A DNA stretch of 63,912 bases, the filler included, from Neolecta irregularis DAH-3 (lineage: Eukaryota): assembly GCA_001929475.1 (NCBI GenBank). It is 7 parts of 7 records of this genome, joined end to end, with 100 filler letters (N's around TTAATTAATTAA, not from the genome) between each part and the next. Parts side by side here need not be neighbours in the genome. Positions count along the whole stretch, not along the records: positions 61,147 to 63,912 come from LXFE01000780.1; 6 more parts are not named here. One strand, given 5' to 3'. Below, piece after piece: positions 6,296-63,912 of the stretch; the stretch's first letter is position 1; each line of letters begins with the position of its first letter. The notes beneath the pieces were generated by a model. It was not told where the DNA came from and made no database searches. It was given only the letters and a program-made list of their open reading frames with translations. The translations under genes and the position numbers were made by a program.

Positions 6296-6359
6296 GTCGA
6301 ACCTGGCTATAACGAAGTAACTTGGCAGCGTGTTCAGTGACGGGATGAATGGGATAAAC

Positions 6360-7100
6360 AGGCGGGGGAGAAGGAGCGCGAGGTGGGAGAGACGCGCGAG
6401 AAGTGCGTGCGAGGCTGCAGAGGCGGGACGGGAGAGGCAGGCGAGACGGGTTGGTGAGGCGGGCAGGCGAGGCGGGTAGGAAGGCGGATAGGGATGAGAC
6501 AGGGGGGAAGGGCTGCCCTAAATAGTATTATCTCATATCACGTGAAAAGGCCCGTCTTGGCACATGGGCCGATGGGCGGGGCTTTTCATGGGCGAGGCTT
6601 AGCCCATGGCCCGTCCACAACACACTTCTTGGGTGAGCAACTAGGATTTGGTGTTGAAAGGTGAAAAGGCAGGTGGCAATATCACAATGAGAGCAGCTTG
6701 TACCAGTTAACAAAAACTCCAAGAAGATAAGAATATAAAGATATAATTGTTATAATTATGGTGGGGGAGGTTGGGAAAGGTACAGTTTTAAAATTGGAGT
6801 GGTGGTGGCAGTATGTCAACTGCCTGTACAGCCAATAATTACAGAATGTGAAAGAGTATTCAGCGAAACAGCAAAACTGATTTCTGATGAAATAAACCAC
6901 ATTGGGGATGACACAGTTGAAGCAGGCGAGCTGAAGAAATGGCCTGATAGAAATCAATTTATATTAGCAATTATTGTTATTTAGTGAATTCGGGATTGCA
7001 CCTATATAAATTGTTAATAATTGCTGCCACCGGGGAACTATTGACCCGCCCGCCGGAGGGTCTCCAACCGCGGCCGGCGGGCGGGCGGTTGGACACGGTG
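6360..7100 (+). mobile_element. hAT transposon remnants: G-rich subterminal repeats, C-terminal dimerisation-domain fragment (6799-6945) and GC-rich terminus
   Basis: PIITECERVFSETAKLISDEINHIGDDTVEAGELKKW matches the hAT dimerisation consensus (ERVFS...L.D.T.EA...LK.W); followed by a CCCGCCCGCC...GGCGGGCGGG hairpin and ggacacggtg end. Confidence 0.75.
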
Positions 7101-7171
7101 AGCGACTGACCATCAAATCTTCATGTCCAAATACTTTTAATCTCCGCTCTTGTTCCATTCATCCTAATCCG

Positions 7172-24361: not shown

Positions 24362-24587
24362 TTTTGAAATCTTTTTTCACTGCTAAAGCCAACTTCAATT
24401 CGCCTCGCCTCTACAGGATTCCCTTAACCAAGTACCTTTTCTCTTCTACTATTTCTTCTTAACTATTAACTATGTATATGAATTATTNNNNNNNNNNNNN
24501 NNNNNNNNNNNNNNNNNNNNNNNNNNNNNNNTTAATTAATTAANNNNNNNNNNNNNNNNNNNNNNNNNNNNNNNNNNNNNNNNNNNN

Positions 24588-34929: not shown

Positions 34930-35029
34930 NNNNNNNNNNNNNNNNNNNNNNNNNNNNNNNNNNNNNNNNNNNNTTAATTAATTAANNNNNNNNNNNNNNN
35001 NNNNNNNNNNNNNNNNNNNNNNNNNNNNN

Positions 35030-36865: not shown

Positions 36866-38527
36866 TCATGTATTCATCAATTTTGTGACATAGTCAAGCC
36901 CCATTTGCCAAAAGGCAGCTTCCAACCTTGTTGCGTGTGCAAAAATATCCACAAGCTCTGCTATTCGGCTTGTACTTTGTTTCAAAGCATGCTCTTCAAG
37001 CAACTCTTGACCTAATCGAACAGCCCGTTCATAATCTTGTCCAGCATAATTTTCAATCCATCGATGATAAGGATTATTCTCTAATATCAGGATTATTTGA
37101 ATATGGGGGGTGGACAAACCCCTTTTTATTTTAGAATCGGTAAGCAACCTTTTTGCAATAACTCCATATCCTAGCAAGCATGGGCTTAACCCAACCTGAA
37201 GACCCATCCAATCGCCTTGCAACCCAAGATCAAGCAGATACCGTGAGTAAGCCATCGATTCAACACTTTCTGGAGTGGTGTTTATATCATTTTCGCTGAT
37301 GCCAAAGTCGTCAAAGAAAGACTTGTGCAAAACTATCTCGCGCTCGATATATAGCACAATAGCAGCTGAACTAGCAGACTGAGATAGGGTGGATGCTTTG
37401 TACCCTGCGAGAGAATGTGCCCTAGCATAATGCCTCAACCACATGTAATCTACCTTATTAGAAAGAACTTGCAGATTGATAAACCTTGAACCAGATAATA
37501 CATGAAAGCTTTTTTGTCCAATGTTCCCTCCGCCAGCTGACGAACAAATGAATGATCTGCCGCTCAATTGGTAAATTCTCAAAAAACCCTGCTTACCAAC
37601 GTATTCGGTCCATATATTGCATATTTTGGGATGTCTTATCAAATAATCGTAAAATTTACCTTTGTAGAATGGTAATCGATATATGCTGACGGTATGATTG
37701 ATTGGACCGTGACCTTTCCCAAGGGAAACAGCCTCAGATAATGCAGCTTGGACATAGTGAATGGCATTTTCTACGGCTTGGATGACTGGTTGAGATAGTG
37801 CCAAATTGGAAGCAATTGCAGCGGCTAAGGAACATCCAGTACCATGTGTGGAGGTAGAGTCCACAAATTCGGATTTAAATTCCCAAAATCGCGAGCCGTC
37901 ATACAAGATGTCGATAACAAATTTCTTCTTGATCGTATTTGCATCAGTCAAATTCTCCATGTATGGGCATTGCCCACCTTTTACTAGAACATAAGACGGT
38001 CCCAAGGCTTTTATATCCCTGGCCAAGCTCATAGCATCGTCTTTGCTGTCAGAACAGTTGCTGTTTGTTTGGCATAATAGCAACCGAGCTTCGTCTCTGT
38101 TTGGTGTCAAGATTAATGTCCGTGGCAGCAGAAGTTTGGCATAAGTTTCGACAGCACTAGGTGAAAGCAAAACACTGCCGCTTGTGGAGACCATAACCGG
38201 GTCAACGACAGTGTTGATTAACTTATGTCTGTCTATTGCAGCTGCGACTTCTGCCACGATCTCTGGCGAAGCAAGCATTCCTGTTTTTAATACATCTATT
38301 CCGATGTCCTCAATGCAAGTATCGATTTGTTTTCGGACGAACTGTGAGTCCATAACCTCGATGCCATTCACTTCTTGAGTATTTTGAGAGGTGAGAGCTG
38401 TAATAGCGGTCATGCCATAGACTCCATGAGCGGTCAGGACCTTCAAATCAGCCTGTATACCGGCTCCTCCAGAAGAATCGGAACCGGCAATAACTAATAC
38501 TCGAGAGAGATATTTTGAAGTCTCCAT
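36866..38527 (-). CDS. THI20: HMP/HMP-P kinase fused to TenA (thiaminase II), 3 introns
   Basis: IAGSDSSGGAGIQADLK, KTGML, VDPVMVSTSG, TPN, KGG, THGTGCSL, GHGPINH; TenA part YL.QD, SPCLLGY, NPYHRWI..Y, LEAAFWQM. Confidence 0.95.
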   Translation of the reverse strand: METSKYLSRVLVIAGSDSSGGAGIQADLKVLTAHGVYGMTAITALTSQNTQEVNGIEVMDSQFVRKQIDTCIEDIGIDVLKTGMLASPEIVAEVAAAIDRHKLINTVVDPVMVSTSGSVLLSPSAVETYAKLLLPRTLILTPNRDEARLLLCQTNSNCSDSKDDAMSLARDIKALGPSYVLVKGGQCPYMENLTDANTIKKKFVIDILYDGSRFWEFKSEFVDSTSTHGTGCSLAAAIASNLALSQPVIQAVENAIHYVQAALSEAVSLGKGHGPINHTVSIYRLPFYKGKFYDYLIRHPKICNIWTEYVGKQGFLRIYQLSGRSFICSSAGGGNIGQKSFHVLSGSRFINLQVLSNKVDYMWLRHYARAHSLAGYKASTLSQSASSAAIVLYIEREIVLHKSFFDDFGISENDINTTPESVESMAYSRYLLDLGLQGDWMGLQVGLSPCLLGYGVIAKRLLTDSKIKRGLSTPHIQIILILENNPYHRWIENYAGQDYERAVRLGQELLEEHALKQSTSRIAELVDIFAHATRLEAAFWQMGLDYVTKLMNT

Positions 38528-38606
38528 GACAATGGTTCACTCAATCAAATGGAGTTTGTTATTGAGTTACACGTGTACATTAAACCGGTTTGAAAAAAAT
38601 ATCTAC
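38528..38606. promoter_or_regulatory. 79-bp bidirectional promoter between THI20 and THI6
   Basis: Between divergent ATGs; palindromes TACACGTGTA (38568-38577) and AAACCGGTTT (38582-38591), inverted repeat ACTCAAT/ATTGAGT (38539-38567). Confidence 0.7.
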
Positions 38607-40341
38607 ATGGTTGACTACACCCTATACTTGGTCGCGTCACAGTCATTTCTCCCACCAGGTGTTGACTTGCTTACACAAATTCAGTATGCACTCGAGGGCG
38701 GGATCACAGTTCTTCAACTGCGAGAAAAAGAAATCACCACTGCAGCATTTGTCAGGCTGGCAAAACAAGTCCTTGCTTTGGCTAAAGGATATAATGTGCC
38801 TCTGATTATCAATGACCGGGTGGATGTCATGCTGGCCGTGGATGCAGATGGAGTACACATTGGCCAAGATGACATGGGTAGGGTGCTCTATTCTGCATCG
38901 GTTTAAAGTTTCCCCAGACGCAGCTACAGTTCGACAGCTCATTGGCAGCAAGAAAATCCTAGGAGTTAGCACCAATACAGTAGAAGAAGCACAGAAAGCT
39001 ATCAATAATGGCGCAGATTATATTGGTAAAACTCTGCCTAGATCGTACCTATTGTCAACTTAGGCATTGGAGCTATCTTCCACACCCAGACCAAGGCATT
39101 GACAGTTCCTCCTTGTGGAATTGCAGGATGTAGAGGTATGATCTTTTGGTATACTTCATATACTAAATGCATGACAGAAATTATTAAATACTGCAAATTA
39201 ACCCAGCAATCGAAAATTAAAACTGTTGCAATTGGAGGCATTAATTTGTCAAATATTCAACGAGTGAAGTATCAAACAGCTATCCAGATCCCAAAAGACA
39301 ACATCCAGTTTACTCTTGATGGAGTCGCTGTAGTCACTGCTATAATATCGTCTGCAGATGCCAAATCCGACACAAAAGCGTTGAAAGAATCCTGGAATAG
39401 GGGCATTTGTTCAAGATTAGATTTGAATCTCTGTCCGAGAAACCTAGACACCTTGAAACAAAGAATCGGAAGCATACCTGAGAATGTCCTCAAGACAAAC
39501 CCCTTGATACACCACATAACAAATAATGTCTGTTCTACAGACTATTAGCTGTTTAACAGTATCAGGTGGTCAAGAATTTCTCAGCCAATATTACTCTTGC
39601 TGTTGGAGCTTCTCCGATAATGAGTGAAGAGAGAGCAGAAATAGATGGTATCTTTTAGAGTTCGACACAATCTTACCGTCAGATCTAAGTAGAGCTTCCG
39701 GAGCCTTATTACTCAACATGGGCACTCTCGACACTCAGCGGACAGAAACCATGCTTTATGCGGTAAAGAAAAGCAACGAAAATAAAGTCCCCATTGTGTT
39801 TGATCCAGTAGGTGCAGGAGCGTCTAATTTCAGAGCCAATGCAACTAGAGAGTTTCTAGAGTCGGGAATCATGAATGTTATCAAAGGCAACGAGGGCGAA
39901 TTATTGACGATATTGAAGGGAAAAGGGGCTATGAAAGGTGTTGATTCAATAAGCTGCGGAACTCTCGAAGACAAAGTCCATCTTGTAGAAGAAATTTCTC
40001 TACGGGAACGTACTGTGGTAGTGTGTACGGGAAGACACGACGTGATTAGTGATGGCAGATGTACAGTGGTGTGCTCCAATGGTCATCCTGTACTTGGACA
40101 GGTGACAGGTACTGGCTGCGCTCTGGGAAGCGTTATTGCTGCATGCTGTGCCGTTGAGGAGGATACATTCTCTGCTACTGTTGCGGCTGTGGCTTGGTAT
40201 GGTATTGCAGCAGAGTTGGCAGCGGCAGAATGCAATGGGCCGGGCAGTTTTATGCCTACATTTATTGACCGACTGAGTCAAGTACAAAAAAGCGAGGTTT
40301 CCTTGTGGATGTCGAAAGTTGATCTTGAAATGATTCAATGA
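38607..40341 (+). CDS. THI6: Bifunctional thiamine-phosphate synthase / hydroxyethylthiazole kinase, 5 introns
   Basis: VDYTLYLV, QLREK, INDRVDV, GVHIGQDD, VAIGGI, HHITNN|VVKNFSAN, GASPIM, DPVGAGA, IKGNEGE, TGTGC. Confidence 0.95.
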
Positions 40342-41005: not shown

Positions 41006-41310
41006 GAAAATTGATATTTCCAGGATTGTCTAGTTTAGCGCAGCGATTGATGTTGTCACATAATTCTCCTCCTGCGAAGAAAAATGGTTGGGTTAAAATA
41101 AGGGACTGCAGCGTAGTTGAGAAACCCGTGTTCATCGATCTCGAGAAAGTGAGCTTGTTTCTGAATGCTAATGAAGAAGCAAATGCCGGGAGTATAGCCG
41201 GGAGTATTGCNNNNNNNNNNNNNNNNNNNNNNNNNNNNNNNNNNNNNNNNNNNNTTAATTAATTAANNNNNNNNNNNNNNNNNNNNNNNNNNNNNNNNNN
41301 NNNNNNNNNN

Positions 41311-45110: not shown

Positions 45111-48100
45111 CATGGGTTGTCCAGTTCTTTTGATGCACATCTAGTTTCTTGGACATGAATTAAGTTTATTGAAGGGGATGTCTTCTCTGTCCATTCCCTC
45201 CTGGGCTTTTCCCAACTCCACAGCAATGATATTTCATTTTCTGCAACTGCTGGATTTCTTCTTGAAGATGAATTTATCAGGAGGTTTGTTTCCAGGGTAG
45301 AAGAAGCAGTTCTTCTTCGTGTGCCCTTTACTGGATTTCTAACCCTGTCAATCAACTTTAATCTCAAATGGGGTCAGCCCTGTTGAGCTGTTCAAGGAGT
45401 TGTTCATCCAAAATTCCATCATTTGTATGTGCTCAGCCCAGTCACTCTGAGACTCATCCACACATGCTCGTAGTATCTGGATAATTGTCTTGTTCAATCG
45501 CTCTGATGCACTATCAGTTTCTGGGTGGAATTCAGTACTCATTCTTAACTATATGCCTATTAATCTGTGTAGTTCTCGCCATAGTTCACCAGTGAATCTT
45601 GGGTCTCTGTCAGAGACTATGGCTTTTGGTAGGCAAAACTGGCAGTACCAATTCTGCCAGAGTATCTTGGCTACTCCTAGTGCTGAGATAGACATCTTTA
45701 TAGGTTCTATCATGAAGAATCAAGATAATCAGTCAGTTACAACAAAACTACCATTGAATCCCCCTGATTGCTGCATTGGACCCAAAAAATCCATTGCAAT
45801 TTCGTCAAACTGTAAATATGGTACTGGTACTGGAAGGGAAGAAAGGAATCCAGCACAAGCCTGGGTTTTCGATTTCACTCTTTGGCACTTATCACAACTT
45901 GTGACATATTTCTTTACCTAGCAAGTCATGTTTGGCCAGATATATCATTCCTGCATGCTGTGCAACGTCTTGTCAAGGTCCAGATGACCCTGCTGGTCAT
46001 GGCATTGTTGCAGCAGTTTGCGACGGATTTGTCCTTTGGGGAGGAGGAGTCAATCACCATGGTAGATAAATTCCTCCTTCTTACTGAAATTCTTATAATG
46101 TTCAGGGTTATTCTCAATCTTCTGAATGAAGTTATCCTGACTGTATTCTTCTCTGAGAAGCTTGGATTCTTCTTGGGAGAGTATACTCTCTGCTATAGTA
46201 ACTGATGCTATAGACATATCAGTCCTTGACAATGTATCAGCAAACAAATATGTTGAGCCAGGAATATACTGGATTTCAAAGTCAAAATTGGTCAACTCCT
46301 CAAGCCATCTACTTTGATGACCTGATAAATTCATCTAACATTGCCAGAATCGCAAACGTTCACAGTCTGCAGAATAATGAATTTATATCCCAATAGCAGG
46401 TGTTTCCATTTCATTAAGGCTCGAATAACAGCTAGCATTTCACGGTCATAGATTGAGTTTTTTGACTCTACCTCACTAAACACTTTGATGTGAATGCTGC
46501 TGGTCATGCTGTATGCCAACCTAGCCCTTGGGATATTACTACCCCACTGCCTCTGTCACAAGCATCACAGATGAGCCAAATCTATTCACTTTGTGCAATA
46601 CGCCTGTGGTCCACTGGCCATAAGTAATCCAATTTGGATATTAATTCTTTTAGAATTCTGAAGGCATTATCTTCAATACTAGTACATCGGAATGGGATAG
46701 TCTTCCTTGTCAGTTGCGATAGTACTGTTGCATGGGCTGCAAGCACAGGAATAAATGGTAATAGGTAGTTGATTAACCTAAGAAATCCTGTGATTGCTCT
46801 ACTGGTTTTTGNNNNNNNNNNAGAATGGGATAGTCTTCCTTGTCAGTTGCGATAGTACTGTTGCATGGGCTGCAAGCGCAGGAATAAATGGTAATAGGTA
46901 GTTGATTAACCTAAGAAATCCTGTGATTGCTCTACTGGTTTTTGGTCTTTTCCACTGGGCTATCTTGTCTACCTTGCCTGTATCTGTCTCCAGGCCCTTC
47001 TTTGTTAACTAACCAATGCCCCAAGAACTCAATTTCTTTAGCAAATAGTACTGATTTCTTTGGGCTAATTGTGATTTGTGTATCCCGTAATACTTTCAAT
47101 ATATTAAATATATTTTGCTTGTACTCCTTTATTGATTCTGAAAAAATAATAATATCATCCAAATATATATAATGGCATATTCTGTTATAAGCTCGTAGTG
47201 TATAATTCATAAATCTTTGGAATATCTCTGGGCTATTGCAAAGTCCCTGTGGCATCACAATCCACGTGAGCACCCAGTACAGAGTTTTGAATGCAGTTTT
47301 GTAAATATCTGGCTAGTACACATGTATTTGATAGTATGCATCTTTCAAATCTATTTTTCCTTTAAACTTTGCATTAGCTACTATCTCTAATAGGTCCATT
47401 TGTATTGAGATTGGTGTACAGTCCTTTACTGTATAATCATTCATTGCTGAATCATCTTTCTTTTCTGTCATCATAGTTGATGATGAATATTAACTCGATG
47501 AATATCATATTTGTCCACACTTAAGTGCATCTTCAAGGAAGCCTTTCAGCTCTGGTTTCCACTTATGTGGAATCTGATAAAGCTTGCCATTGATTGGTAC
47601 TTATGGCTTTTCTATTAGCTTGATATAATGCTTTGGAGCCTCTTTTGGTGGAACTTTGGGTGTAGCAGTATCTCAAAAATATCTTTGAAATGACAACAGT
47701 ATGCCTTTTCTCCTCCAATCTTGGTTCAGTTGGTTCTTGCTCAACATTGGCTGCAGCAACCAAGCAAGGTTCTTTGATTTCAGGGCTCTTTTCCTTGTTA
47801 ACCTTGTCTTGTGGCAAGATAAGGTTGGAGTTAGAATCCTTCATTGTGGCCCACCAGGAGAATGATTTAATTGTAACTTGGAATTTCTTAATAAATGGAT
47901 CACCCAAACTAGCTTCATATTTTTCCAACTGTACAATCAGAAACCTCATCTTTTTCTTAGAAATGAAATTAATCAAAGGAATCTTGATTGGTAACTCAAT
48001 ATACGCCTGGATGATTTCTGAATGTCCATGCAAGGCCTGTGACAATCATAGACCTTGATCTTGGTGCTTTATCTCAACTTTATCCAGTAATTTGTCTGTT

Positions 48101-49640: not shown

Positions 49641-51361
49641 AATCATCTGACAGTTGTTATATAGATCAATCTATCACTGTCCCAAAACCTTCTCCACCGC
49701 TTGAAATTATGAATGTCACTCTATCCGGTGTCAACAAATTAACTCTTGGGTAGTTCACTGAACCAGGTTATGTAAAGTTAACCAAACTTGCTGAACCTGG
49801 TATACTTTGCAGAACTCCTCAATCCTTCAAGATAACTGATTGGCACTCAGATAACCCAACAATAACAAGAACCCAGAATTTTCCCTTAGATGCTACTTGA
49901 TCCCAATTCAGGACTTAATAACACCTTCAGTAATACTCTGAACTCTATACAAAACTTAACTTGAGACCCAGTAAGGGTTTACAAGTTTACAAACTCCAAA
50001 AACCTTGAATATCCTTTCAGATCATACAAGATGTTAAACCAATACACAAAATTGTTAATGGTAACTCTTGATTGACAGATAAGACTCTAAAGAGTAGATT
50101 CCAAGACTTTTGATGTATAACTTTGAGGTCTTTTCCTAGGCAACCTCAATCCCAACAGATGGCTATCAACCAAGTAGACAGGTTCAACCAAAAGACACAG
50201 ATGTAATAATAGTAACTCTTGTTCTACTGACCCAAGCCAACTGAGTAAACTGTGAACTTTTTATGTGTAACAAAGGTAATTCTTATTGCTGCACAGAAAG
50301 GAACTTTTCTTTCCCCTTCATATATCCTGAGGTCACCTTACCATCGATTTTTGCCAGGACCAATGGAATGTCCTTTTTCCACCAAACACACTCTAAATAC
50401 AAAAATATTTCTAAGTTCCCCAACCACCACCACATTTTCACCACTATCTCGCGATCCGAGTAAGCGAGGTATAACAAACTTTACACCAGCATGTAGAGCA
50501 CATTGAGGCGGACATCCTTTGTCTATAATTCATATGGTGGATCATCGTAGTTAAGGAACCGTTCATGGTTTAATGCATGAATTTCTCTCTTTTTCACATA
50601 AAACATTGGCGTTCTGCTTAATCAATAAGGTAAGGTACCAAAATCTTTACACGCCGGATAGAAATCATCGAGCTGAGTATTGCCGTCCTATATTTGCCAT
50701 GCTGGATCATGGTGGTTAATGAGTTATGGAGCTGTGAAGCAAATATTTTCCTTCAAAACCACCCCAATAGCAGAAGGCTATCTCCAATCATCCATAAACT
50801 GCATTGACGATTGTTCGAGGCAATAGGGAGCATCAAGACGATCCTTTCTGTAGGTTAAAGATAGCAGTTATCTTTCTTCCAGCCAGAGATATTGATCTTT
50901 AAGTTTCCTTGCTGATCTTATCATCCTAATCNNNNNNNNNNNNNNNNNNNNNNNNNNNNNNNNNNNNNNNNNNNNTTAATTAATTAANNNNNNNNNNNNN
51001 NNNNNNNNNNNNNNNNNNNNNNNNNNNNNNNCTTTCTTGAGCCAGCCGGGTTACAATGGACCGGAACTAAAAACATTTACTACATGATACATTGTGAACC
51101 TAAGGACTTCAAAATTAGATTATGCCACCGCATTGATATTCGCAGAACGCTATTTTGCATTCTAAGAGTTCGGTACAAATCCTTGAACTTAGATGGGTGT
51201 TTTTTGGGCGAAAGCAAAATCAACTAATTTCGTCCCTCAATCAGCTTGCTAAGACAGAGCAAGCCTCGAATTAATGTATCTCATTAGAGCAGCGATAAGA
51301 TAATTACAAAACAAATCAGGGTTTGATCAAACGAACTGAAAACACAACAATTACGACCTGG

Positions 51362-56437: not shown

Positions 56438-56970
56438 NNNNNNNNNNNNNNNNNNNNNNNNNNNNNNNNNNNNNNNNNNNNTTAATTAATTAANNNNNNN
56501 NNNNNNNNNNNNNNNNNNNNNNNNNNNNNNNNNNNNNCTTGGATAAAGTCGACCGCGGGAGATCATCCATACATGAGCTCGCCTGCTCGTATCGAAGTCA
56601 TAGTAATTGAGGAAGTCGGTGGTTTCGTATCCTTCTATTGGCTAAAAGATAAAAATAAAAATAAAAATTCATAAACAAACTTTGTAACTAAGTACATAAG
56701 TTTCATCTACTGTGGACTGCGAGCACAGAAGCTCCCCGAACCGCAGTTAATCTACCATATGAAGGATAGTTGATTACAGCACCCGCGCTACTCGTCCTCC
56801 CTGGTTCCAGGCTCACTCCCACTAATCATCCCAGAACAAACTTTGAATAGAACGTTGGGGAGATGAATATATGAGGCGCGATTTATTTTTTTGGGTGGCC
56901 GGTTCAGGGTGGTGGCCGTTTCATCGCCGCCCAGCTGAACTGCGGGTGTTTCTTCGCAGCCATCAAAACA

Positions 56971-61033: not shown

Positions 61034-61153
61034 TCAGCGCCCAACCNNNNNNNNNNNNNNNNNNNNNNNNNNNNNNNNNNNNNNNNNNNNTTAATTAATT
61101 AANNNNNNNNNNNNNNNNNNNNNNNNNNNNNNNNNNNNNNNNNNNNAAAAGAA

Positions 61154-61680
61154 TCATTTCTGCAGTTGCTTTCCAAATTTTGTTTTGATCTTACTGAAAA
61201 GCCCTGGAATGCCTCCTTTCTTTTCAATACAATGGGCACCGCCTGAGATAGTTTGGCAGCCATTCTTACAACTCGTTCGTTCGACCCCAAAATCCCATGC
61301 ATTTCCCGAGTCTTGGCGGAAAAGAAGCCCAGTGAGCAGTACCTTACCGTCACAACGAGGATACATTCGCTCAGTGTCACCAGTGGTTGCCCATATCTTC
61401 AGGGCTGGATCCTCGTCGACGCAATGCCCTTCGAAACAAGCAACAGGACAGGTCATTATATAGCGGGAACCAGTGATCGAGTCATCTTCCACAAACAAAG
61501 CTTTTCCATCGCAATATCTGGCACCGCTTGCGAATTGACCATTTTCGTTGTCATAGAAGCTATTCAAGTATTAATTTGCAATCGAATCAGCCAAAATAGG
61601 GCGTACTTTTCGTCCATATGTCGGCGAAGTAAGGCTCCCATGATAAGAGGAGCAGCGAAGAGAAAAGCTACAGGTTGCAT
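61154..61680 (-). CDS. Small secreted cysteine-rich orphan protein (about 159 aa), 1 intron (61560-61606)
   Basis: Exon 1 MQPVAFLFAAPLIMGALLRR (signal peptide) splices in frame into the 137-aa ORF; 8 Cys. Confidence 0.75.
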
Positions 61681-62124
61681 GTTGACGATTGATTTGACTT
61701 GGACGATCTGAATGTAGACGATTGTCTGAAGGTATGATAGTTGTTTTCATGAGTTCTCCAGGCTATTTATTAGTTTCCACGAACTGCTGAGGCTCCAGCC
61801 ATGTTCTGTAACCGGTAAGACATTAGAGGCTGGTGAATGCCAACTTCGCCACTTGAGAGATGATTTCCAAGTCAAAACGACGCGGATTTCCACATCCGGC
61901 GTATATTTCGAACCACAACCCGGTTTCAGCACGGTCAGTGGCGTTTACAGGCGGTTGCAGATCACCCGCGTCCCGTATTTGGTCCGGGTGGCTTGTGGTG
62001 ACGCTTCCTGCAATCTCGAATCATGTCTCAGATGTTGTCGTATCTTCCCGCCGTTGATCATTCATACTCCGCGTCAGCAAAGTTGGATAGAATTAACAAA
62101 AACATAAGATTATTGTGTAAATAT

Positions 62125-62345
62125 TAGGGTGCGTTCGCCAGTCACTATTTTGAAAAGCCACAATATTCAAAAAAGGGAATATTCTTTGTTTTGGTGGAAA
62201 TTAAAATATTAGGATATACTTTCCGGGAGAGAGGTGGCGGGCGAGGCGGGCGGGAGGGACGGGCGAGGCGGAGAGGTGGGAGAGAGGTGGCGGGAGAGGC
62301 GGGCGAGTCGGGCGGGAGAGAGGTAGCGGGAGAGGCGGGCGAGTC
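62125..62345 (+). mobile_element. Putative hAT-like left end (TAGGGTGCG) with G-rich GGCGGGAGAG subterminal array (62225-62345)
   Basis: Repeat array read directly; TIR assignment is inferred from similarity to (C/T)AGGG/CAGAGTGCG-type hAT ends. Confidence 0.5.
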
Positions 62346-62395
62346 AAGTAAGCACCAATAGAAGAGCTGCTTCACATTGTCAATAACTAAATTTC

Positions 62396-63814
62396 TCAAG
62401 ACTGTATGGTTGCTACATTTAATATTTTTTCCAAGATATTCCCCAAAACTTCAACAAATAGTCTTAGTTCCTCAAAAGTATTGTATAGTGCAGTAGGAGC
62501 AACTCTAATAACATCCGGTCGTCGGGCATCCACTGTAATCTTATGGTCTTTTAACCTGTCAAAGACATTCTGCATTTTTCCATTTCGGAAATAAAGACTC
62601 AGTTGTGAGCCAGATAATTCCGGAGTAATGATATGGAATATCTCCGAATATGAAGGAAGATCTAGGAGTAATTTCTTCAAGTAACGGGTGAGAAGGTTGG
62701 ACCGGTTCGTGAGTGTGGCCATATCAGTTTTCCCATAAATCTCTAGAGAGGAGTAGAGAGAGATTACATCAATGACAGAGGGATTTGAAAGTTGATATCC
62801 AGATGCTCCTGGCATTGGCTTAAACTCTTCTTGTTAGTCCATTTCGTACATAGGTCATACTGTTGATCATTTCAAAGCGAGTTTCTCTATCATGACCCCA
62901 CCATCCAGCAAGCCTATTCAGGTTACATCAATATCAAACATATATCATACCGCAACTGTCCATCATATCTCTCATTAACAAATAGCCCAGCAATAGCACC
63001 TGGTCCAGAGTTCAGATACTTGTATGAGCACCAAACTGCGAAATCGACATTCCACTCTGATAACTTCAACTCTACATTTCCCACTGCATGAGCAAGATCC
63101 CAACCAACAATCATCCCACAATTTTGGGCATACCTGGTAATTTTCTCCATCTCGAATAACTGACCAGTATAGAACTGAACTCCAGAGAGAAATAATATGG
63201 CTGTTTCATCTGCATGTTGATCAATTGCTCGAAAGATTTGTTCAGTGGTTAATCCATAGGATGGCCCAGTTGGATCAATTGTGACTAACCCTTTTTCAGG
63301 ATCAATCCCGTGATGCTGGATCTGACTTTCGATGGCATACTTGTGCTATCAGAATATGTACAGAGGAAAGACTCACGTGGTCGCTTGGAAATGCTTTCCC
63401 CTCAATAATGATTTTGTAGCGTCCATTGACATTCGGCCTATAGAAACTCGCCATTAAGAAATGAAGATTACTAGTTAAACTGCCCATTGCGATAACTTCC
63501 TTTTCTTTTGAACCTACAATTTTAGCTAACTGTGGAACAACGAGTAAGTCGATATTTGCCCAAGCTCTATTTCCGGCACGACTAAAGTGCCCATTTATGG
63601 CATGAGTTGCCCAAATTCGAAGTTCTTCTGTGACGTATGCTTGAAGCGATTTCGGCTGGAGCCCAAGAGAATTTCCGCAGAAGTAAATCCCCTCTGGAAG
63701 ATGGAATTCGCTGCGGAGAGATGGATATTGCTCATCCATTTTCATGGCAAAAGCCTGAGACCTGGGATCGAGAGACAAAGTCGACAATTGATCTTCCAGA
63801 ATTAAATTGTCCAT
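62396..63814 (-). CDS. BNA5: Kynureninase (PLP-dependent), 3 introns
   Basis: YFCGNSLGLQPK, MGSLTSNLH, EGKAFPSDH|Y, GWDLAHAVGNV, WCSYKYLNSGPG, GWWGH, RVAPTALYNTF. Confidence 0.96.
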
Positions 63815-63859
63815 ATTTTGTTGCTTTTTGGCGGTCTGCTTGGTTTCGATCTGACACGG

Positions 63860-63912
63860 CCCGTCTCTCTCCCGCCTCTCCCGCCTCGCCCGTCCCGCCC
63901 GCCCTCTCTCCC
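63860..63912 (-). repeat. C-rich array, inverted copy of 62225-62345 (continues beyond window)
   Basis: ctctcccgcctctcccgcctcgcccgtcccgcccgcc is the reverse complement of the ggcgggagag/gacgggcgaggcg units. Confidence 0.85.

Follow-up and report, generated by a model that had tools for sequence, protein, structure and literature searches.

A kynureninase gene of Neolecta irregularis between related inverted G-rich arrays, with a decayed paralogue elsewhere, as a candidate for capture or relocation by mobile DNA

Host-gene capture by cut-and-paste transposons is known mostly from plants, and mostly as dead fragments. In the Pack-MULEs and other Pack-type elements of plants, terminal inverted repeat (TIR) ends bracket host sequence of which a parental copy lies elsewhere; Pack-MULEs are usually multi-copy, with fragments or chimeras as cargo, and do not usually take over the function of the parent gene. 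Elements of the hAT type carry subterminal repeat arrays and 8-bp target site duplications (TSDs), and Pack-type capture is much less described in fungi. Here we describe the kynureninase gene (BNA5) of Neolecta irregularis DAH-3, located at the end of a 63,912-nt stretch of DNA (the window) and tightly flanked on both sides by related, inverted G-rich arrays, and we compare it with the closest systems on record.

In the account of Dhillon et al. (2019, PMC6710886), a hAT element captured and amplified histone H3 in Pseudocercospora fijiensis and its relatives. That system is likewise fungal, and in it a whole housekeeping coding sequence (CDS) was duplicated into a TIR transposon while the original persists elsewhere (PMC6710886). 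The element is described as a 9.5-kb hAT that contains a transposase domain and whose 99 complete copies show a 20-bp TIR and 8-bp TSDs, and its captured histone copies are dead (PMC6710886), whereas in Neolecta the copy between the repeats is live, there is one composite at most, no transposase is present, and the right end and TSD are out of view. In maize, according to Du et al. (2011, PMC3260210), Ds2 and Ds-l4 elements contain filler DNA and gene fragments, and capture is there called rare for hAT elements (2 Ds2 and 9 Ds-l4). The likeness to our locus is that the ends and the subterminal repeat motifs are kept and the interior is replaced by host DNA including introns; the difference is that the cargo of Ds is gene fragments and its motif the hexamer AAACGG (PMC3260210), as against a near-whole working gene and G-rich units of 9-13 nt in Neolecta.

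In the window, separate contigs of N. irregularis DAH-3 are chained by six N44-TTAATTAATTAA-N44 linkers (window positions 24488-24587, 34930-35029, 41211-41310, 50932-51031, 56438-56537 and 61047-61146), so that adjoining pieces need not adjoin in the genome; two N10 gaps additionally divide it. The kynureninase contig covers window positions 61147-63912 (2,766 bp), and its final letter falls inside the right array. Depths and spliced joints were taken from two public runs containing this contig, X1 and X2, both used as contigs, which makes the depth figures rough. X2 is on record as 'DNA?', yet it shows five GT..AG-type skips on the minus strand, and because of these we treated it as cDNA-like (cDNA, complementary DNA). 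The features of the locus are as follows.

62396-63814, minus strand: kynureninase (BNA5) CDS, four exons, 436 aa, with a translation equal to OLL24477.1
63814-63377, 63339-62951, 62913-62861 and 62826-62396, minus strand: BNA5 exons of the gene model
62225-62345, plus strand: left G-rich array of degenerate units GGGAGAGAGGT / GGCGGGAGAGGC / GGGCGAGKC, containing GGGCGGGAGGGACGGG
63857-63912, minus strand: right array, G-rich on the BNA5 sense strand and cut by the contig end
63804-63856, minus strand: 5′ segment that appears non-ancestral, made up of the first 11 nt of the CDS (ATGGACAATTT) and the 5′ untranslated region (UTR) up to the array
62125-62223, plus strand: terminal unit of a dispersed repeat, starting TAGGGTGCGTTCGCC, with about 6-7 copies by summed contig depth
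62117-62124, no strand: GTAAATAT, the candidate 8-bp TSD of the preliminary description of this DNA, with no partner within the contig

The gene itself is intact. The gene model, with introns of 37, 37 and 34 nt, gives a 436-aa frame without internal stop, and spliced joints in X2 contigs confirmed introns 2 and 3, in agreement with the intact, intron-containing kynureninase of the preliminary description. Each exon matched the public protein OLL24477.1 (our query P0361), named Kynureninase, with 99.3-100% identity in per-exon tblastn searches. In Pfam searches exon 2 matched Aminotran_5 (E=5.9e-9) and exon 4 matched KYNU_C (E=4.9e-16), with no family matched by exon 1; the protein thus combines the class-V aminotransferase fold with the kynureninase C-terminal domain. 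It is colinear with P0001, a cDNA-like protein from JGI that is 87% identical and that we take to be the orthologue from a sister lineage, since a THI20 query has a similar JGI companion. The exact BNA5 copy stands at an X1 depth of about 380, against a single-copy level of 398. The window copy is the probable functional kynureninase of N. irregularis. Introns 1 (63340-63376) and 3 (62827-62860) end in AAG, where YAG is usual, and in intron 3 a mere 8 nt or so separate an ACTAAC box from the 3′ splice site. Kynureninase acts in the de novo synthesis of nicotinamide adenine dinucleotide (NAD), a pathway that, as stated in the preliminary description, fission yeast lacks.

The spacing between the gene and the arrays is short on both sides. 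The left array ends at 62345, 50 nt beyond the BNA5 stop codon (62396-62398), and the C-rich right array begins at 63857-63865, 42-50 nt before the ATG (63814); the preliminary description had placed an array about 50 bp after the stop and its reverse complement about 45 bp before the ATG, which our measurements bear out. With up to two mismatches, GGCGGGCGAGGCGG matched the window 10 times against 0.06 expected, a number reached by none of 100 shuffles. By blastn, 62248-62286 and 63904-63865 are alike over 40 nt at 92.5% in inverted orientation. The left array compared with the reverse-complemented right array gave a local score of 64, which was reached by none of 500 shuffles (mean 35.3, sd 5.7, maximum 54), while the same-strand control scored 6, below its shuffle mean of 8.8. 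Since the inverted score lies beyond the shuffles, the arrays are related copies and not just alike low-complexity DNA, so that the two BNA5 arrays are related inverted copies. Both contain four G3 tracts with loops of 1-2 nt, that is, sequence of the G-quadruplex type.

At 90% likeness the inner part of the left array is single-copy (X1 depth 336, bin 62263-62355). The right array is multi-copy (X1 depth 2072, bin 63844-63912). Next to one and the same BNA5 5′ UTR it occurs in at least three versions (in X1 record 8, in an X1 contig at depth 183 and in X2 record 14). The right array is therefore a polymorphic minisatellite, which explains the break of the assembly at this point. X1 contigs run past 63912 by a median of 68 further array-like letters, and X2 record 14 (2,362 nt) spans about 2.2 kb of upstream sequence and an array some 60 nt long before it reaches the BNA5 CDS. 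The sequence flanking the right array on its outer side has no further copies within the window, and for the left array taken alone (62346-62353) no matching TSD was found by eye.

A second, decayed copy of the gene exists. A search for short relatives returned OLL26623.1 (95 aa, our query P0241), a 'Kynureninase' of the same strain encoded on a 128,338-nt contig. X1 contains contigs that differ from BNA5 by about 9%, at depths of 324-424, which agrees with a single copy; deletions of 1, 6, 1, 1 and 3 nt occur in them, and intron 1 of BNA5 is spanned by one such contig. These variants fit OLL26623.1 (T70A at 63607, D16N at 63769, and a 1-nt deletion at 63566 that gives a frameshift after GNR), and this match indicates an intact copy in the window contig and a broken paralogue elsewhere. 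By tblastn against the window, P0241 matched the BNA5 locus and nothing else, so the paralogue is not in the window; X2 contains its 5′ end at a depth of 74. The preliminary description had called for a genome-wide count of BNA5 copies; in the runs and the protein search two came to light, one intact (window) and one frameshifted (128,338-nt contig). The decayed second copy supports a capture reading, which needs a copy elsewhere: as in Pack-type elements, the cargo is of host origin, has its parent gene at another place and was copied at the DNA level, introns and all. In a metagenome scan with P0001, the best of the 80 loci kept was 53% identical, and 528 of the 597 matched stretches encode relatives; the 1,552-nt contig of P0001 itself was not among the 80 loci kept.

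The two copies stop matching close to the right array. The paralogue contig fits the window up to 63803, with the two copies about 95% identical at the amino acid level to that point, and then becomes unlike it for more than 255 nt, the likeness dropping to chance within codon 4. Beyond 63803, 6 of 30 positions are identical in register, and 661 of 1000 shuffles scored at least as high as the best local alignment. Homology to the paralogue ends about 53 nt from the right array, and the first 11 bases of the CDS and the 5′ UTR share nothing with the paralogue, in line with the view of the preliminary description that almost nothing of the native promoter remains. The N-termini read MSILEDQL in the paralogue, MSSLENQL in P0001 and MDNLILEDQL in the window copy. 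As the paralogue and P0001 share the start register, the start codon and 5′ UTR of the window copy, and all that lies further upstream, are by parsimony probably not ancestral. At the other end of the gene the paralogue adds no depth left of 62449, where its 90% likeness is lost, and the window protein matches P0001 to about 62430; the 9-residue C-terminal extension of the window protein could be a simple loss of the stop codon.

Left of the gene lies the end of a dispersed repeat. TAGGGTGCG begins at 62125, directly after GTAAATAT, and in the X1 bins covering 62077-62262 the depth is 2896 and 2273, against the single-copy level of 398 (left 930 nt, one contig). Two X1 contigs match from 62125 rightwards and one X2 contig from 62132, and all differ further left. 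Because the contigs diverge left of 62124/62131, the TAGGGTGCG at 62125 is a genuine boundary of a repeat with about 6-7 copies. One X2 contig from another locus shows the repeat unit running into an array, GGCGGGAGAGG. Both observations uphold, as the boundary of a repeat, the end that had been noted left of the array. A blastn search of the window found no second copy of the 62125-62223 unit, and what comes after the unit elsewhere in the genome has no copy in the window either; nor was the inverted partner of the TAGGGTGCG terminus, in its right-end form ...CGCACCCTA, found in the window. Neither Rfam nor a tRNA scan matched anything in the contig of the unit; the unit is therefore no recognisable short interspersed element (SINE) or non-coding RNA. 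Within the unit, AAATATTAGG recurs at 62204-62213.

A possible tie to hAT elements comes from a relic on another contig of the window.

6341-7166, plus strand: relic of a non-autonomous hAT-like element, 826 bp, with ends CGGGATGAATGG and (reverse complement) TAGGATGAATGG

The relic has a G-rich array (6360-6500) directly inside its left end, a hAT dimerisation remnant at about 6823-6960 and a GC-rich palindrome (7045-7096) inside its right end. The preliminary description had called the hAT remnant at 6360-7100 clear; this was too strong as regards Pfam, where the open reading frame 6739-6981 matched Dimer_Tnp_hAT with E=0.023 and 14.9 bits, below the cutoff of 21.4, but 29 of its 30 named Atlas neighbours belong to the Dimer_Tnp_hAT family. 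The TIR of Ac is given as (C/T)AGGGATGAAA (PMC3260210), and each relic end, CGGGATGAATGG and TAGGATGAATGG, is one indel away from it; no 8-bp TSD was found by eye at 6341-7166. These features suggest that the genome has held hAT-like elements laid out from terminus to G-rich array. A similar array beside the hAT remnant had also been claimed: a G-rich array is present there, but its likeness to the BNA5 arrays is marginal, as 16 of 500 and 33 of 500 shuffles reached the observed scores. The relic ends (GGATGAATGG) are Ac-like and differ from TAGGGTGCG. The left terminus TAGGG of the 62125 unit fits the hAT terminal motif, given as YARNG (PMC3014272); the site can also be read as TTA + GGGTGCGTTCGCC (TTA + GGGTGCG), which would be Harbinger-like.

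The repeat unit also belongs to the transcribed region of the neighbouring gene.

61154-61680, minus strand: left neighbour, a small orphan gene, exons 61680-61607 and 61559-61157, stop codon 61154-61156
62067-62103, minus strand: 37-nt intron in the 5′ UTR of the left neighbour (X2 joint 62066->62104, CT..AC ends, in the 1,146-nt record 9)
62184-62219, minus strand: 36-nt intron inside the repeat unit (X2 joint 62183->62220, CT..AC ends, depth 17.8)

The left neighbour encodes a protein with a hydrophobic N-terminus and several cysteines, for which no Pfam family was found and the best Atlas score was 0.77; an X2 spliced joint in this gene skips 61560-61606. The exon upstream of the 62067-62103 intron covers 62104 to about 62172 and thus spans the repeat boundary, so that the transcript of the left neighbour (X2 record 9) starts at about 62172 or further right and crosses 62125. 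The 62184-62219 intron is spliced in RNA that runs leftwards from the left array. With introns upstream of the left neighbour, one of them within the unit, part of the repeat has become exon sequence of a 5′ UTR that exceeds 450 nt.

The best reading of the BNA5 arrangement, which we hold tentatively and at somewhat below even chances, is a repeat-associated duplication or capture between the arrays. The window BNA5 would have arisen from the ancestral gene by duplication at the DNA level, together with its introns, and would have come to sit between the G-rich subterminal arrays, inverted to each other, of a short TIR-type element that is non-autonomous, by a route like that by which Ds-like elements acquire filler DNA when breaks or gaps are repaired. 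The duplicated stretch would have started at about codon 4, the sequence beside the right array would now provide the start codon and the 5′ UTR as well as, presumably, the promoter, and the parental copy on the 128-kb contig would then have decayed. Which of the copies is derived, a single event behind the whole arrangement and the hAT-like nature of the element are what we infer here. One duplication between inverted array-bearing ends explains at once the paralogue, the homology break and the non-homologous spacer between ATG and array; a paralogue and a break beside an array are expected under capture and would be coincidences under unrelated insertions, which favours capture. The hAT-like relic, which repeats the layout from terminus to G-rich array, also speaks for it. 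The more specific proposal that the sole working kynureninase was captured by a non-autonomous hAT-like element and is transcribed and translated from the element side, replacing a decaying ancestral locus, is doubtful. As for the Pack-hAT capture put forward in the preliminary description, the inverted related arrays and the decayed paralogue agree with it, but a single mobile hAT unit is a candidate only, as is a joint movement of arrays, unit and gene.

Several observations weigh against capture between the arrays. The intact gene is single-copy, with no second composite or empty site known, and the contig ends at 63912 within the right array, which puts the right terminus and the TSD out of view. 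In X2 record 14, the 30 nt on the outer side of the right array are no mirror image of the left terminal segment; by eye, the two have the motif ATAT-CTTT alone in common. Five X1 contigs follow the repeat unit to 62223 and then continue into non-array sequence, so unit and array are not always linked, and transcripts of the left neighbour start inside the proposed element or read through it. The start-register argument depends on two residues and on the register of the alignment, and from the loss of likeness left of 62449 the paralogue could itself be the partial, derived copy. The hAT link of the BNA5 arrays is weak, its basis being the TAGGG fit and the weak relic. Lastly, the genome is reported to have 14.5 Mb and 5,546 genes, or about 2.6 kb per gene (PMC5309816), and in so compact a genome any intergenic insertion falls near a CDS, so that tight spacing is expected anyway.

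This last point is one strength of an alternative that we consider unlikely, though not remote, in which the window is the native BNA5 locus and two array-bearing repeats were inserted separately in the short flanking spacers, perhaps by local transposition. A small deletion or filler at the upstream insertion would then have swapped the first codons and the 5′ UTR, and the copy on the 128-kb contig would be unrelated, older and decayed. The position of the left unit and array within the transcribed 5′ region of the neighbour resembles that of an ordinary intergenic insertion, the paralogue loses its likeness before the end of the CDS where the window copy keeps the orthologous C-terminus, and the unmirrored outer flank of the right array agrees with separate insertions as well. 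However, this alternative requires three independent events, namely two insertions of a family with about 5-7 copies within 1.6 kb and a duplication, together with a lucky in-frame ATG, and after a simple insertion the 43-50 nt from the ATG to the array should still be homologous to the 5′ UTR of the paralogue, which they are not.

The arrays could instead be unstable minisatellites of the G-quadruplex type spread by recombination, at which a fragile site took up a BNA5 duplicate by end joining with no transposase involved. We judge this improbable. It would account for the several versions of the right array beside one 5′ UTR and for the break of the assembly there, and it agrees with the G3 tracts of both arrays, with the single-copy state of the inner left array at 90% likeness and with the marginal likeness to the array beside the hAT relic; the sharp multi-copy boundary of the adjoining unit, starting TAGGG, the joining of the same unit to an array at one other locus and the likewise terminus-to-array layout of the relic all argue against it. 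An assembly artefact, with the right array mis-joined to the contig end from reads of the left array or of another locus, is very improbable indeed: the contig end is of low complexity, and 'opposite strands' joints of 62291/62317 with 63866/63891 show that the arrays cross-match, but X1 record 8 (282 nt, 0 differences) and X2 record 14 each join the BNA5 5′ UTR to an array and continue beyond it, and the two libraries are different ones, since spliced joints occur in X2.

The descent of BNA5 is vertical, with an intact frame. In a maximum likelihood tree of 25 rows the Neolecta kynureninase pairs with P0001 (100/100), and both fall within an ascomycete clade (99/96) with Saitoella, Tuber/Terfezia and Orbiliales. 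The vertical descent neither helps nor hurts the capture reading, so the phylogeny called for in the preliminary description leaves its proposal where it was. A horizontal transfer from Cytophagales, with 54-58% identity in exon 1, was considered and rejected, as those sequences group elsewhere in the tree.

Other parts of the window gave some further observations. On both sides of the N10 gap at 46812-46821, about 115 nt (46697-46811 / 46822-46940) are near-identical, with one mismatch (CACAGG vs CGCAGG); these duplicate flanks are an unmerged overlap and hint at allelic variation in the sequenced material. A 6,181-nt contig carries a THI20-like gene with HMP kinase and TENA domains (36869-38536, minus strand) and, head to head with it, a gene with a THI6-type hydroxyethylthiazole kinase domain (39628-40341, plus strand), which look like a small thiamine-synthesis gene pair. 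The first 300 nt of the window are C-rich with a strong GC skew (e.g. 82-142) and may be coding; they do not align to the BNA5 arrays.

The string 'transpos' has 0 occurrences in the main text of the Neolecta genome paper, the supplements of which might list repeats (PMC5309816), and a search at the level of titles found no literature on transposable elements of Neolecta. The placement of BNA5 and its decayed paralogue fit capture or relocation by mobile DNA, without proof. If capture is true, a DNA transposon would have moved a gene of an essential pathway and supplied a start codon and promoter that are new to it; a Pack-type element would have relocated a complete gene in a fungus, and the case would be the first account of DNA-transposon biology in Neolecta. 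On a conservative reading, the locus still documents a metabolic gene whose 5′ end was rebuilt at a G-rich repeat that is polymorphic.

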